Assembly: GCA_964016885.1 (NCBI GenBank)
Contig: OZ024741.1
Coordinates: 405,604,001-405,668,000 of the forward strand
Direction: 5' to 3'
Length of the DNA stretch: 64,000 nucleotides
Source of the DNA: Eledone cirrhosa
Taxonomy: Eukaryota
Shown here in pieces: positions 8,509-58,966 of this stretch. Made by a program: the position numbers and the translations under genes. Below the pieces are notes generated by a model. That model had not been told where the DNA came from, did not search any database, and worked only from the letters and a program-made list of their open reading frames with translations. Positions within the stretch are counted from its first letter, which is position 1. Each line of letters starts with the position of its first letter.

Positions 8509-8919
8509 TGTTTATTGGCAAGAAGTTTTTTTAATAATAAAAGACGGGTTAAAGCAACCTGCAATGTGTATGTATGTATGTACATATATATATATATATA
8601 TATATATATATATGTGTGTGTGTGTGTGTGTGTGTGTGTGTGTGTGTGTGTGTGTGTGTGTGTATGTACATATATTTTTATGTGTATATATATATATGTG
8701 TATATGTGTATATCTATATATGTGTATATGTTTGTATATGTATATATATATGTATATGTGTATATATGTGTGTGTATATGTATATATGTGTATTAATATA
8801 TATGTATATATAAGTATATATATATATATATATATATATATATATATATATATATATATATATATATATATATATATATTTATTAAAATAACAGATTAAA
8901 GTTTAAGCAAAGCGGTGCT

Positions 8920-10018
8920 TTGTACCGTGACGATGGTCTTTTGACCATGACTAAGTGCGGACCTCGTGCTTGCGACAGGTTCAGAAAAGAACTCACAGCC
9001 TTCTTTAAAGGCTTCAGCCTCTCTATACAGGTTGAGGCCAATCTCTCGGTCGTTAATTACCTCGACGTTACCCTCAATTTATTGAATGGGTTGTATTACC
9101 CGTATAGAAAGCCGAATGATACGCTTAATTACATAAGTAAGTATTCCAACCATCCTGCCAGCATAACGAAGAACCTGGTAAGAAACGTTTCGTTGAGGCT
9201 TTCCCGTCTTTCCACCAACGAGCGTATTTTCAACGACCATTCCACTTATTACAATCAAGCTCTTGCTCGAAGTGGATTTGTCGATAAGGTAGCATATACA
9301 GAGTACGAAAATAGACCTAGAAGAAATAGATCCCGTCGCATTTGTTGGTATAACCCGCCATATAATATGGAGGTGGCCACACCATTAGCTAAGATCTTTC
9401 TTTCCCTTATTACGAAGCATTTTCCCCCTACACATAAATATAGTAAAATTTTTAATAGAAATACTATTAAAATTTCTTACTCTACGACTCCTAACCTTTC
9501 ACATAACATCACAGCTTCAAATTTAGCTAAACTACCTAGCCGTAGGAACACGTGCAACCCTGTAGTTAGTACTAACTGTAATTGTAGGAATCGGGCTGAT
9601 TGCCCACTATCCGGGAAATGCCTCTCTAGTAACATTGTCTACAAATGTAAGGTTGTAACACCCACTTCCTGTAGGGCCTACATAGGGTTAACCGCCAATA
9701 GTTTCAAGCAGCGTCTTTACATGCATTCCCCTTTCTTTTCGTTACCCTCTAAGAAGGAATATGACGTCACTTTCAGCTTATATCTGGAGTCTAAAAGACA
9801 ACCACACCCAATATAAGTTACACTGGGAGATCCTAGCTAGGGCTAGATCGTATAACGGAAATAAAAGACCATGTGACCTCTGCGCCGCTGAGGCCCTGGA
9901 AATACTCTACGCCACAGACCACATCTTAAACAAAAAATCTGAGGCAATTTCGGCTTGTAAACATAAATTGCACAAAACTTTCCTGTATTACAGCCCCACG
10001 TTATACCCTAACGGATAG
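8920..10018 (+). pseudogene. PLE RT (partial) + GIY-YIG endonuclease, frameshift near 9750
   Basis: YRDD; NYLDVTL; WYNPP; CNCRNRADCPLSGKC linker; VYKC…YIG; CDLCAAE…LNKKSE…CKH. Confidence 0.9.
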
Positions 10019-10915
10019 TACGATCTATACGTGGATATTTTACGTCTTGATGTGGGAGCTAAGTATATGTTTTGTTTATTCCTTTACTTATTTGCATAGG
10101 TAAGTATATATTACCCGTATGTTTGTGAAGGTACGTATACCTTCTCGTACGTTTATTTGATTGTAATTTTTTTATATATTCTGGTACATAGGGTTTGGCT
10201 ATGTGAATACGGGAGTTTTGCGTCTGTGTGAGTATGTAGGTTCGTACGTATGGTGGGTATGTGTATATGTGTATTTCTTGTTTTAGTTGACTTACGTCTC
10301 CGAACATTCGTGTATTTATATGTAGGTATGTGTGTGCGCTTGTTATATACGTATGTATTTATTTATATACGTTTATATAATTATTTATTTGTATACACGC
10401 ATACACACACACATATTTATATGTTCGTGGTTTTGTATACCTATGGTAAGGTTTTGCGTATGCTTGTGTATGTACGTATTTGTTTGCATGTATGTATTTA
10501 TTTATTTCTATTACTTCTGTATTGTATTTATTTACTTTGTTCTTAACTCTGTAGCGGAGATTCATTTGGTCTCCTAGTTAGAATTTTAGTCTACGACTTC
10601 TGCTATACCATTTACGTGGTTTTGTCTTTGCGTGCTATTGTTCTCCACGCTCCACATTGACGTATTATCTTCGTTTTTTCGTTCATTGCCAGAGAACGTC
10701 TCTATGCACCACCTAAGAGAACATTAGTCTACGATCTCTTTTATACCATAAACATGGTTCTGTCTTTGCGCGTAATTGTTTTTCACCGCTCCTATTAATG
10801 ACGTATTATTCGTTTTTTCCCGTTCTTTGCCAGCGAACGTTTCCACCAACCAAAGTATCGTCTTCCTGTCTTCCTCCGGTTGCAACGTTTTTTGAAATAT
10901 CCAGTTCTGCGTTTA

Positions 10916-10989
10916 CAGATTGACTTTGTTAGTTTCAGAAGATCCCGTTAAGGGTGAAAGCAGCGATTCTTTGCTTAAACCTTAATCTG
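10916..10989 (+). ncRNA. Hammerhead-like motif, variant core CAGAAGA
   Basis: GTTT/AAAC plus CAGATT/AATCTG stem I; CCC/GGG stem II; GAAA; GCA/TGC stem III. Confidence 0.6.
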
Positions 10990-11466
10990 TTATTTTAATA
11001 AATATTTGCTCTACGGTTCTTATATATTTGATATATATCTATCCTTATCGAGCCCTCTTTGGATTTTAGTCTTCAAATTTATTATTATTACTATATATAT
11101 ATATATATATATATATATATATATATATATATATATATATATATGTATGTGTGTGTGTGTGTGTATGTGTGAATGTAGCGAAGATAATACGTCAGCAATG
11201 ACGTGTTCGTCAGAATGTCGTTATGCAGACAGTCAGACATACAGACAGTTATTACAAGGGCTCGACGGCCATCGATAACCGGCGCCTCACACCCCTATAA
11301 CAACAGAAAATTGAAACATAAAAGCAGCAGTTAGTATCTTTAGATCGCAAGGAATATATAAATGCAAGTTTGAAGTCAATCGGAGTAGAAATATGGATTT
11401 GTATAGACTGTGCAAAAATGAGGACACACACACAGGCAACATCAGTTTTATATATATATATATATA

Positions 11467-12134
11467 CATGTGGAAGCTTAGTAAAATCGAAGCTTTGACT
11501 GTGGGCAAGCAAAGTCGAACTACAATATGAATGAGTTAGCAAAGCACTCAATAAGGGTAGGTCCTTAGAGTAACAACATACGTTTAAATAGCTTGACAAT
11601 TGAATATTGTGGTATGCAAAACCTAACATACAATACCAGAGCAACGAAAAAACTAGCAGGTTAAAAAAGATACACCTGGACAAATTAAACGTTATACGTT
11701 TAAAATGTTTCTGTGAAAACGAAATCAAATATCCGGCTTACGTAACAAGCGCGCTCGTGGTATTCCATGATCGAACAGAGGATTCATTTCATCAACAGGA
11801 GTTCCGTTCTTTCCAAAAGCGAGGTGGATTCTAAATGCTGAGGCTATGAGCGAGCTGAACGCACATTTAGTTATCACGTGTTATTTCCAATAAGGGAAGA
11901 AACCCTCGGTTTTGGCGGGTCGATTCGAAGTGTTAAACAAAGGAAATATTATAATTTCCACTAACATTCAGAATGAAGCTCTCAACCAGATGTTATTAAA
12001 CAAACACAAATAATTAACCAATCAACAGAATTGTCTAATTAAATTAATTAGTTAATTATTCAATCTAGGAGAAAATAATACACGTGGAAGCTTAGTAAAA
12101 TCGAAGCTTTGGCTGTGGGCAAGCAAAGTCGAAC
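11467..12134 (-). mobile_element. Non-coding 614-bp tandem unit forming the left arm of a PLE insertion
   Basis: 51-bp direct repeat at 11470 and 12084; TTGAGTGCTTT motif; CACGTG and CCAAT boxes; abuts (TA)n on the left and a PLE ORF fragment on the right. Confidence 0.6.
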
Positions 12135-12950
12135 ATCGTATAAAAATAATAAACAACATCGAAACCGTAATAGACGAGTTACTTGGTATAATGCTCCATT
12201 TAATCTACAAATTAAAGATAATTTACCTAAAATTTTTTTTACTATCCTAGAGAAAAACTTCCCGCCAAACCATAAATACCATCAAATTTTAAATAGATCA
12301 ACGGTCAAATTCTCCTACTCAACAACCAAAAATATACAACAAAATATAAGTGCTTACAATGCATATAAATGTTTTAAAAAAACATGAATATACCACCAAC
12401 ACATCAAACTAACCATAATACTAAAATAAACCACAGCAAACCACCATCTCATTCACATACAACAAGTCGAGAAAATTTCACACCTAATTTGACTAACTCC
12501 CCTGATATAACATTCACGAAATGTTGTAACTGTAGAAACAAAGCAAATTGCCCATTAAAAGGAAATTCCCTTATTAATAACATAGTATATAAATGTAAAA
12601 TTAGCACTAAGGACTCAACCTATTCATATATAGGAGCTACTTCTAACCAATTTAAAGTAAGATTTAATACCCACAAACACAGTTTTAAAAATGCCGCATT
12701 AGCTAATACAACATCCTTAGCTGAAATAATTAATAATTATAGAAAAAAGAATATCGATTATAACCTGACCTGGAGTGTGCTCAAAAAGGCCTCCCCTTAT
12801 CAAAATAATAAATATGAATGTAGATTATGTTCCCAGGAACTTTTTGAAATAATGAAATCTAAGGATATCCTATTAAATAAGCGACAAGAATTAATTATAT
12901 CATGCAATCATAGAATTAGAAAAACTTTCAAATATTATAAACCTAATTAA
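12135..12950 (+). pseudogene. PLE (Hydra-type) linker + GIY-YIG fragment, frameshift near 12380
   Basis: WYNAPF; CNCRNKANCPLKGNS; IVYKC…YIGATSNQFKVRFNTH; CRLCSQE…LNKRQE…CNH; AT-rich 3' UTR follows to about 13760. Confidence 0.88.
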
Positions 12951-57740: not shown

Positions 57741-57767
57741 ATATATATATATATATATATATAATAT

Positions 57768-58350
57768 AATGAAATGACAGGAGGCTGGATTTGTGTAAAT
57801 CCTTGAAAGGTTTATTATACTATGATAATTTCAATGACCGGGTTCCGTATGAATCCGGTGATATCATCAGGTATTCGAAATATAATACGTGAATGTAATA
57901 GATAAAATCCATGGGGATGAAAATCGAGGGCCCGAGGGCGACCGCTATTCTGTTCCTTCAACCTGTTCCTTCAACCTCAGCCGGTCGCCCTCGAGGGCGA
58001 CCGGCTGAGGTTGAAGGAACAGAATAGCGGTCGCCCTCGGGCCCTCGATTTTCAGCCCCATGAATTTTATCTATTACATTCACGTATTATATTTCGAATA
58101 CCTGATGATATCACCGGATTCATACGGAACCCGGTCATTGAAATTATCATAGTATAATAAACCTTTCAAGGATTTACACAAATCCAGCCTCCTGTCATTT
58201 CATTATAATATTTAACTCCGTAATAGCACCACCAACTACAAAAACAAAGACGGTTGAACTGCCTTACGTTGAGTACTCTCTATATTATTGCATTACGATT
58301 GACCATACGGAATATACCAGCTCTATACAGTGGTAAACCCCAAACCTGAA
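57768..58350. mobile_element. Two-armed inverted PLE-end insertion with HHRs at 57817-57874 (-) and 58098-58155 (+)
   Basis: Fold-back centred at about 57992; ATAC-CTGATGA…ACCGG/CCGGT…GAAA-TTATCA-TA-GTAT; right tail of about 140 nt. Confidence 0.88.
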
Positions 58351-58379
58351 TATATATATATATATATATATATATATAT

Positions 58380-58566
58380 AGGAACCAGTAAGACCCCGAC
58401 AGCTGAGCTCAAGCCGTTTCGACGGCTAATTCTGAATTAGCCGTCGAAACGGCTTGAGCTCAGCTGTCGGGGTCTTACTGGTTCCTATTATCCACTCTAC
58501 TACCTCAAGTATTGAGTACTTTGGTGCGTTATGGTCCACCTGGTTCCTTACCACATTTCCTTCGTT
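58380..58566. mobile_element. Two-armed inverted insertion, family B (long arm on the right)
   Basis: Fold-back centred at about 58433. Confidence 0.9.
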
Positions 58567-58644
58567 ATATATATATATATATATATATATATATATATAT
58601 ATATATATATATATATATATATATATATATATATATATATACAT

Positions 58645-58966
58645 ACAATATGTTGAAAAGGTAACACACTAGAGAGATATACAGGGCGCTATCAATAAAA
58701 CAGGGGAAAACCACCAGTGTATGGAATCTATAACCTATGAAAGGCAGAGTATAGACACGATAATTAAAAATATAAATTAAAGCGTAAATAAATACCTCTC
58801 TATATGGTGGTTTTTCCCTGTTTTATTGATAGCGCACTGTATCTCTCTCTGGTGTGTTACCTTTTCAACATATTGTATTTTGAAGAGCTCAAGATTTCCT
58901 CTCCTTTGAGCACATTATTTACAGGGAACGGCGAGAGTCTATGGCTCCGTTAATGTATCGTGGCAT
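58645..58966. mobile_element. Two-armed inverted insertion with tail
   Basis: 58645-58716 is inverted relative to 58805-58877; right tail of about 90 nt ends in (CA)n. Confidence 0.7.

Follow-up and report, generated by a model that had tools for sequence, protein, structure and literature searches.

Head-to-head insertions of Penelope-like elements in Eledone cirrhosa pair two fixed internal end sites, probably through priming from each target end

Penelope-like elements (PLEs) are the sister group of telomerase. Insertions of their endonuclease-bearing (EN+) members are described as carrying an inverted 5'-truncated copy and a tail on only one of two inverted pseudo-long terminal repeats (pLTRs) (PMC3846280, PMC8557442), and the origin of both the inverted ends and the one-sided tail has been named as open (PMC8557442). 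The Poseidon element of Anolis carolinensis (PAc), which is predicted to form a dimer, cuts and extends both target strands in vitro, and two internal starts of reverse transcription (RT) bound its tail (PMC11167929). As far as the text of that report goes, the question is answered only in part. Here, PLE insertions are described in a window of 64,000 nucleotides (nt) of Eledone cirrhosa (positions 405,604,001-405,668,000 of contig OZ024741.1, assembly GCA_964016885.1), a stretch of (TA)n-rich animal DNA. They share with published EN+ PLE units the head-to-head arms, the partial tandems that form pLTRs, the one-ended tail and the (TA)n targets (PMC8557442, PMC3846280). The layout, the one-sided tail and the existence of two start sites are thus already known. 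A preliminary description of the window had correctly listed pLTRs and inversions among the established PLE features; it understated what was known, as the one-sided tail on inverted pLTRs had been published (PMC3846280, PMC8557442).

Self-alignment of the window and tabulation of element ends revealed 16 head-to-head PLE insertions of 10 families between positions 8880 and 58966, in line with the earlier estimate of at least 14 insertions from about nine families. Families A and C are represented twice, family B five times, and families D, E, F, G, H, I and J once each. At both microsatellite junctions the element 3' ends point outward, into (TA)n or a short TA run, as had been proposed. The site where the shorter arm stops is called S, and the end of the longer, tailed arm is called L. 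Reproducible AT-rich stops of the short arm, part of the same proposal, are found at GTTCC/TA in five family B insertions (15967, 17694, 25883, 54710 and 58381) and near CTT/ATA in two family A insertions (14299 and 39167). The family C end CCCCAA(G/A)TATAAC is present three times, as had been counted (about 23410, 39102 and 57738), but the third of these ends (57685-57738) lacks a same-family partner and abuts a different family. The extension from S to L, or tail, measures 43 to 142 nt apart from one 224-nt case in family H. Of the 45 to 220 nt given previously, the upper part does not describe a family-fixed tail, because the short end of family H lies 77 to 82 nt from L in all three sample pairs, whereas it lies 224 nt from L at 55697-56824. 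The larger open reading frame (ORF) piece can sit on either arm, as first reported; the arm that carries it ends at S in 33455-39102 and 47455-53538, and at L in 8880-11091.

The pairing of S with L extends beyond the window. In a genome sample of 159 evenly spaced 10-kb stretches (1.59 Mb), each element end adjoining a microsatellite was classified for 19 families, and the end positions were sharply bimodal, with tails of 39 to 160 nt. Of the 140 head-to-head pairs, 19 had an unclassified end, and in the other 121 both ends lay at S or L. One family E pair (L047) was taken out of the 121 because its supposed L end continues into the element, although it is kept among the resolved junctions below. 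All 120 remaining pairs were S+L, with neither S+S nor L+L (p = 7.5e-37 against independent end choice, where half of the pairs are expected to be S+L). The site definitions were drawn from asymmetric copies, and S+S or L+L pairs would still have scored. A further 15 pairs, chosen by junction pattern alone, were S+L in every case (15/15), so that the prediction of mostly short+long pairs genome-wide is borne out. The S+L rule is real and genome-wide, and it is partly known: the published EN+ PLE tail is an optional extension of 30 to 40 bp (PMC8557442, PMC3846280), whereas tails here are longer and the pairing has been counted and is strict. In three samples from another study, raw reads with (TA)n loose ends were present at S (about 2000 per run) and at L (about 300 per run) of family B, and the two ends are therefore not assembly artefacts. 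The reads, from restriction-site-associated DNA (RAD) libraries, mostly start within an arm near the junction zone and cover the inversion junctions poorly.

A family-blind scan for inverted repeats beside microsatellites gave 230 asymmetric and 28 symmetric cases among the rows listed of 1651; it served only to seed families, because the rows are redundant and only part of them was listed. Six symmetric cases that were inspected resembled elements of the miniature inverted-repeat transposable element (MITE) type, neighbouring insertions or tandem pieces. The PLE insertions do not share the symmetric terminal inverted repeats and fixed internal sequence of MITEs, their ends being asymmetric in 120/120 pairs and their junctions variable. 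MITE-like symmetric TA-flanked elements with terminal inverted repeats occur as a separate class at the same targets (sample stretches L057:7185-7321, L156:6759-7177, L187:3144-3508 and L114:2070-2447).

Both S and L are internal to the element and lie upstream of the ORF. Tandem copies run on past L into the 5' untranslated region (UTR) and the ORF, and in tandem or read-through copies the ATG follows L at 93 nt in family B, 48 nt in D, about 80 nt in A and about 45 nt in E. The family D distance is the same in at least 40 near-identical copies. In family B, one fixed sequence follows L in most of the 100 copies listed among 355 matches, and some read-through copies form arrays of 3543-nt units with intact ORFs. 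A search for read-through copies of family F gave 0 matches. No A-tail was seen at L, and AATAAA or ATTAAA occurs within 40 nt of L in only one of 19 references. The claim that one cDNA is primed near the RNA 3' end is not supported by these data, because the element continues past L and carries no A-tail there. At L247-L248 (G000:C1:91.47-91.49 Mb), four or more family B units with intact ORFs of 717 to 719 aa form an array, which fits read-through, template jumping or rolling-circle copying.

In twin priming of L1, internal priming sites are variable and a minority of insertions is affected. The insertions described here appear to work like twin priming but not in the L1 form, and the L1-type primer at a poly(A) 3' end is not seen. 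The common features would be two target ends that prime two cDNAs and their head-to-head joining; the difference is that L1 primes once at its poly(A) tail and once at an internal position (PMC9148063), whereas the two sites described here are both internal and fixed, no A-tail is present, and overlap of the arms is frequent. Two internal start sites bounding the tail and an AT-rich target are shared with PAc (PMC11167929). The PAc start sites lie within the ORF and are reported as non-homologous to the target, whereas those in E. cirrhosa lie in the 5' UTR with a TA-like overlap of 2 to 4 nt. The available text on PAc contains no assignment of one site to each target end, no explanation of the inversion and no twin hairpins (PMC11167929).

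Junctions between arms were tried in 106 pairs; 53 were resolved within 8 nt, and most of the other 53 had no close long reference. In the resolved set the L arm passes S in 39 cases, stops at S in 5 and stops inside the tail in 9, the last leaving two arms without shared sequence. The S arm reaches further 5' in 31 junctions, the L arm in 7, and the two are level in 15. Overlaps of 1 to 8 nt are present at 24 junctions and fillers of 1 to 8 nt at 28, and one junction is blunt. Genome-wide, 6627 young family B junctions of many types were counted, and an unranked list of 15 young B copies held 13 types. The 30 best matches to a 185-nt B copy, ranked by identity, all have the identical junction at different loci; repeated junctions are expected, since there are 6627 of them. 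Copying of the 185-nt palindrome as a unit was considered and rejected in view of the unranked list. Fold-back or nuclease trimming is disfavoured because junctions vary, some arms share nothing and S arms usually reach further 5'. In family B, the two arms of an insertion resemble each other more closely than they do arms of other copies (0.077 versus 0.171, n = 23), and families G and D lean the same way. An extra base at junctions was considered as cap-derived, but it is indistinguishable from the partner arm and is not claimed as such.

The 5' ends of young family B arms pile up in a narrow zone, with 30,777 arms reaching 52 nt before S, 14,305 reaching 58 nt and 6,975 reaching 61 nt. This zone coincides with TTAGT, which we take to be initiator-like. 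The pile-up suggests run-off at the RNA 5' end, and the pLTR of Drosophila virilis Penelope contains a promoter (PMC2377424). In two partial tandems of the sample (L219 and L221), the upstream piece meets the next pLTR at, or a few bases from, the TTAGT site, which suggests template jumps at the RNA 5' end. With their independent 5' ends and cases of no shared sequence, the two arms appear to behave as separately primed cDNAs. Of the earlier proposal that each target strand primes its own cDNA, the separate arms and the internal start are supported and the start at the RNA 3' end is not.

In the Hydra-type families (B, D and in part A and E; see below), S and L each lie 2 to 7 nt before one of two copies of a bulged hairpin. 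The fold of most copies comprises a 4-bp stem, a 3' bulge of 2 nt and an inner stem that varies, with outer stems of ACTC/GAGT, GCTC/GAGC, GTTC/GAAC or GCAC/GTGC. Modal gaps between the last matching base and the hairpin are, for S and L, 5 and 3 nt in family B, 2 and 3 nt in family E, and 4 and 6 nt in family A (few copies); other values stem from poorly matching subfamilies, and family D had too few usable ends. The 2 to 4 nt before the hairpin match the TA target. The motif RCTC-N6-45-GAGY-(A/G/C)C, scanned on the sense strand, occurs exactly twice in the 3543-nt B unit and in the 3969-nt D unit, with one match following each of S and L (0.79 and 0.16 matches on average in shuffles, respectively). 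It follows both sites in family E and follows L in family A, whose window copy has an intact hairpin 1. In the window, family X, which was not used for motif definition, has GTTC/GAAC following S and another hairpin following L. Families G, I and J carry hairpin 1 in the window, and read-through copies of family G have a variant hairpin 2 without a clear bulge. The window hairpins of families E and D are as follows:

11008..11055, plus strand: family E hairpin 1 (GCTC...GAGC), directly following the S site
49534..49555, plus strand: family D hairpin 1 (ACTC...GAGT), after an internal S site
49625..49644, plus strand: family D hairpin 2 (GCTC...GAGC), after an internal L site (49615) and 20 nt before the ATG

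The S+L pairing probably arises because each target DNA end primes RT at one of two fixed internal sites of the RNA. The model that we infer from these data as the best is twin target-primed RT from two internal sites, each marked by a hairpin, and joining of the cDNAs by their 3' ends. The element protein, probably bound to one RNA as a dimer whose protomers each occupy a hairpin, would cut both strands of (TA)n. Each target 3'-OH would then anneal immediately 5' of a hairpin, through 2 to 4 nt of sequence that resembles TA, the two RTs would proceed toward the RNA 5' end, and the two cDNA 3' ends would be joined through microhomology or by filler-adding repair. S+S and L+L pairs would be missing because one RNA carries both sites. 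An RNA starting in the pLTR about 60 nt before S would yield the abundant palindromes of 130 to 250 nt, read-through RNA of tandem copies would yield long, ORF-bearing arms, and priming or retention of only one end would leave a one-armed copy.

Several points weigh against this model. The arms overlap by 2.3 kb at 33455-39102 and L arms commonly pass S (39/53), which on one RNA requires long strand displacement or sequential use. One-armed S copies and one-armed L copies both exist, so that the S+L rule is not universal for insertions: the sample contains 177 unpaired ends (100 L and 77 S), besides the 19 of 140 pairs with an unclassified end. Among the unpaired B and E ends, some conceal a partner of 11 to 30 nt and others are truly one-armed. 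Similarity between own arms does not exceed that across copies in family C2 (0.038 versus 0.038) or E (0.079 versus 0.067), and the 5' stop counts, which rest on exact patterns, also miss mutated copies. Nor is the shuffle control independent, because the hairpin motif was defined after families A, B, D and E had been viewed; family E has two further matches inside its ORF, and the family A unit scanned gave one match, its hairpin 1 being mutated. Moreover, family C, family F and several sample families keep the S+L rule without this hairpin: twin hairpins were not found in family C, and the family F tail holds no RCTC...GAGY hairpin. Finally, all of the evidence is at the level of DNA.

The long overlapping arms, both those at 33455-39102 and those of the 39 L arms that pass S, would need no strand displacement if each target end were primed on its own RNA and an asymmetric dimer or two ordered steps forced the S+L outcome. 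Two transcripts of one source would likewise yield matching arms. This two-RNA scheme is nevertheless unlikely, as it requires an extra rule against S+S and L+L (0/120), while the excess of longer S arms (31 versus 7) and the L arms that stop in the tail or at S (14/53) suit interference along a single RNA. Same-family pairs showed no clear chimera of two subfamilies, in a comparison of low power.

The published accounts of PLE insertion invoke EN-mediated resolution (PMC8557442) or antisense self-priming (PMC3846280), and the junction data contradict both. In the former, a single priming event at L is followed by fold-back or second-strand synthesis and an endonuclease cut at S. The S sites are indeed AT-rich and target-like, most short insertions are hairpin-like, and the scheme was proposed for the tail itself (PMC8557442). 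A fold-back copy cannot exceed its template, yet the S arm reaches further 5' in 31/53 junctions; the L arm never reaches S in 9/53, and one-armed S copies exist. EN resolution is already contradicted for most resolved junctions, and we give it little credence overall. Still less probable is self-priming on an antisense RNA template that makes the head-to-head palindrome, although junction palindromes are common and introns are retained in PLEs (PMC3846280). It predicts overlapping arms and a foldable junction, whereas unshared arms and filler junctions are frequent, and PAc uses sense RNA and target priming in vitro (PMC11167929). Least probable of all is that the short palindromes are MITE-like non-autonomous units copied whole or assembly fold-backs: the junction repeated in the 30/30 best matches comes from an identity-ranked list and gives way to 13 types among 15 in the unranked one, raw reads of three samples show the loose ends at S and L, and non-overlapping arms cannot be fold-backs.

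Whether twin priming is the normal integration route of EN-bearing PLEs, with one RNA carrying two tandem protein-binding hairpins and a dimer whose halves each attach one end of the double-strand break to their own fixed start site, is in our judgement evenly balanced. If so, a single mechanism would account for the mini palindromes in their great number as well as for the tail, the inverted head-to-head arms and the strictness of the short+long rule, and it would define a compact, portable RNA signal for reverse transcription that starts internally and bridges a break. Direct tests of PLE integration follow from the strict S+L count, from the arms that do not overlap and from the twin hairpins, and these observations argue against the two published explanations. 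A one-site-per-end rule, twin priming for PLEs and twin hairpins were not found in the literature covered; older key papers and the supplementary figures of PMC11167929 lie outside that coverage, so earlier statements on tail pairing are possible.

The assignment to EN+ PLEs follows from a single ORF with an RT and, at its C terminus, a GIY-YIG domain, from YVDD/YRDD and VY...Y(I/V)G motifs in families C, B, D and E, and from intact ORFs of 717 to 737 aa in families B and D; Pfam RVT_1 gave a weak match in family C (E 2.7e-4, below the cut-off). pLTRs from partial tandems, an inverted 5'-truncated copy and a one-sided tail are all present (47455-53538; arrays of the 3543-nt B unit in tandem). 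By the motifs of PMC8557442, B and D would belong to the Hydra clade, and A and E in part. RWR and DKT are found in B and D, RWR in a read-through copy of E and RW in read-through copies of A. The CxCX5C linker is seen as CNCPDRSIC, CNCRDRSKC, CNCRNRADC and CNCPAKNKC, and families B and D have CNLC/CDLC (CxxC) and CKH (CxH) around a conserved E and N, without CCHH. These features, namely RW(K/R), DKT, CxCX5C, CxxC and CxH near the C terminus, a C-terminal GIY-YIG, (TA)n targets and no CCHH, are those described for Hydra clade PLEs (PMC8557442). The differences are that described members measure less than 3 kb (PMC8557442), whereas units here measure 3.5 to 4.0 kb, that copy number is very high, one young B subfamily having more than 30,000 arms, and that the putative hammerhead cores are partly variant. 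Family C, with the linker CTNRKCIIC (CX2-5CxxC), two Cys inside the GIY-YIG core, and EHARQQH, and thus with CCHH, is assigned by its motifs to the Neptune or Nematis clade.

Putative cores (CTGATGA...GAAA) of a pLTR hammerhead ribozyme occur in families A and D, and variant cores were noted by eye in B and E. The latter are putative non-canonical hammerhead-like cores, TTGAGAA in B (L217, about 1340-1420) and CAGAAGA in E (window 10935-10985). The folds of the hammerhead candidates are not better than those of shuffles, and the Rfam scan of the window returned no hammerhead among 88 matches at E<=0.1.

The insertions of the window, and one partial tandem, are arranged as follows:

8880..11091: family E (Hydra-type); S arm about 8881-8921 (minus strand), L arm to 11091 (plus strand); RT-thumb/GIY-YIG ORF fragment at 8887-9816; tail 11001-11091 (91 nt)
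14299..15587: family A; S arm 14299-14494 (minus strand), L arm to 15587 (plus strand); tail 89 nt; hairpin 1 spans 15506-15532; motif of a putative hammerhead core (CTGATGA...GAAA) near 15401-15446
15706..15967: family B; L arm of about 13 nt, then about 180 nt of other sequence, then the S arm
17274..17694: family B; L end left, S end right; tail 80 nt
23407..25251: family C (Neptune/Nematis-type); S end left, 43-nt tail at right
25687..25883: family B mini insertion; tail 80 nt
33455..39102: family C; L arm 33455-35818 (minus strand), S arm to 39102 (plus strand); tail 60 nt; RT/GIY-YIG ORF at 36363-38576 on the S arm; arms 99.87% identical across 2304 nt
39167..39547: family A mini insertion; S end at left; tail of about 90-96 nt
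47455..53538: family D (Hydra-type); L arm 47455-47924 (minus strand), followed by a pLTR-ORF-pLTR partial tandem up to S (53538); frameshifted ORF at 49664-51713; tail 89 nt
54171..54507: family F mini insertion; tail 65 nt
54556..54710: family B mini insertion; arms barely overlap; tail 79 nt
55476..55665: family G mini insertion; tail 67 nt
55697..56824: family H; short end 224 nt from L, off the usual S site of the family
56933..57738: contains the family X partial tandem 56933-57685 (minus strand), with S, hairpin 1 (GTTC...GAAC), the L site, hairpin 2 and ATG
57764..58349: family I; tail about 142 nt, with a long hairpin 1
58381..58565: family B mini insertion of 185 nt; hairpin 1 at 58494-58519; tail 80 nt
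58642..58966: family J; tail about 88 nt

The family X partial tandem joins, head-to-head, a family C S arm (57685-57738). This is a cross-family short+short structure and not a regular two-armed copy, and it perhaps stems from a deletion that later removed the DNA between neighbouring insertions, or from priming on two separate RNAs. The family B insertion at 15706-15967, with its captured sequence of about 180 nt, is partly duplicated in inverted orientation at 16105-16350 across a (TA)n run, with arms 98% alike. Directly left of the insertion at 23407, a GC-rich PLE-like ORF piece lies in minus-strand frames (21858-23395); it has RT/GIY-YIG-like words by eye and no Pfam match. An Asn-rich open frame at 35816-36409, just upstream of the family C ORF, is reminiscent of the N-rich inserts known from rotifer Penelopes (PMC3846280). 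At 60234-60725 and 63269-63802 lie two ORF pieces that match zf-RVT, are of the long interspersed nuclear element (LINE) type and are unrelated to the PLE insertions. The Rfam matches in the window are spurious and comprise microRNAs and small nucleolar RNAs (snoRNAs) on palindromes and microsatellites. The mini palindromes match microRNA precursors weakly (e.g., 58382-58484 and 55544-55664) and are a likely source of false annotation; tens of thousands of them could be misfiled as MITEs or microRNA precursors.

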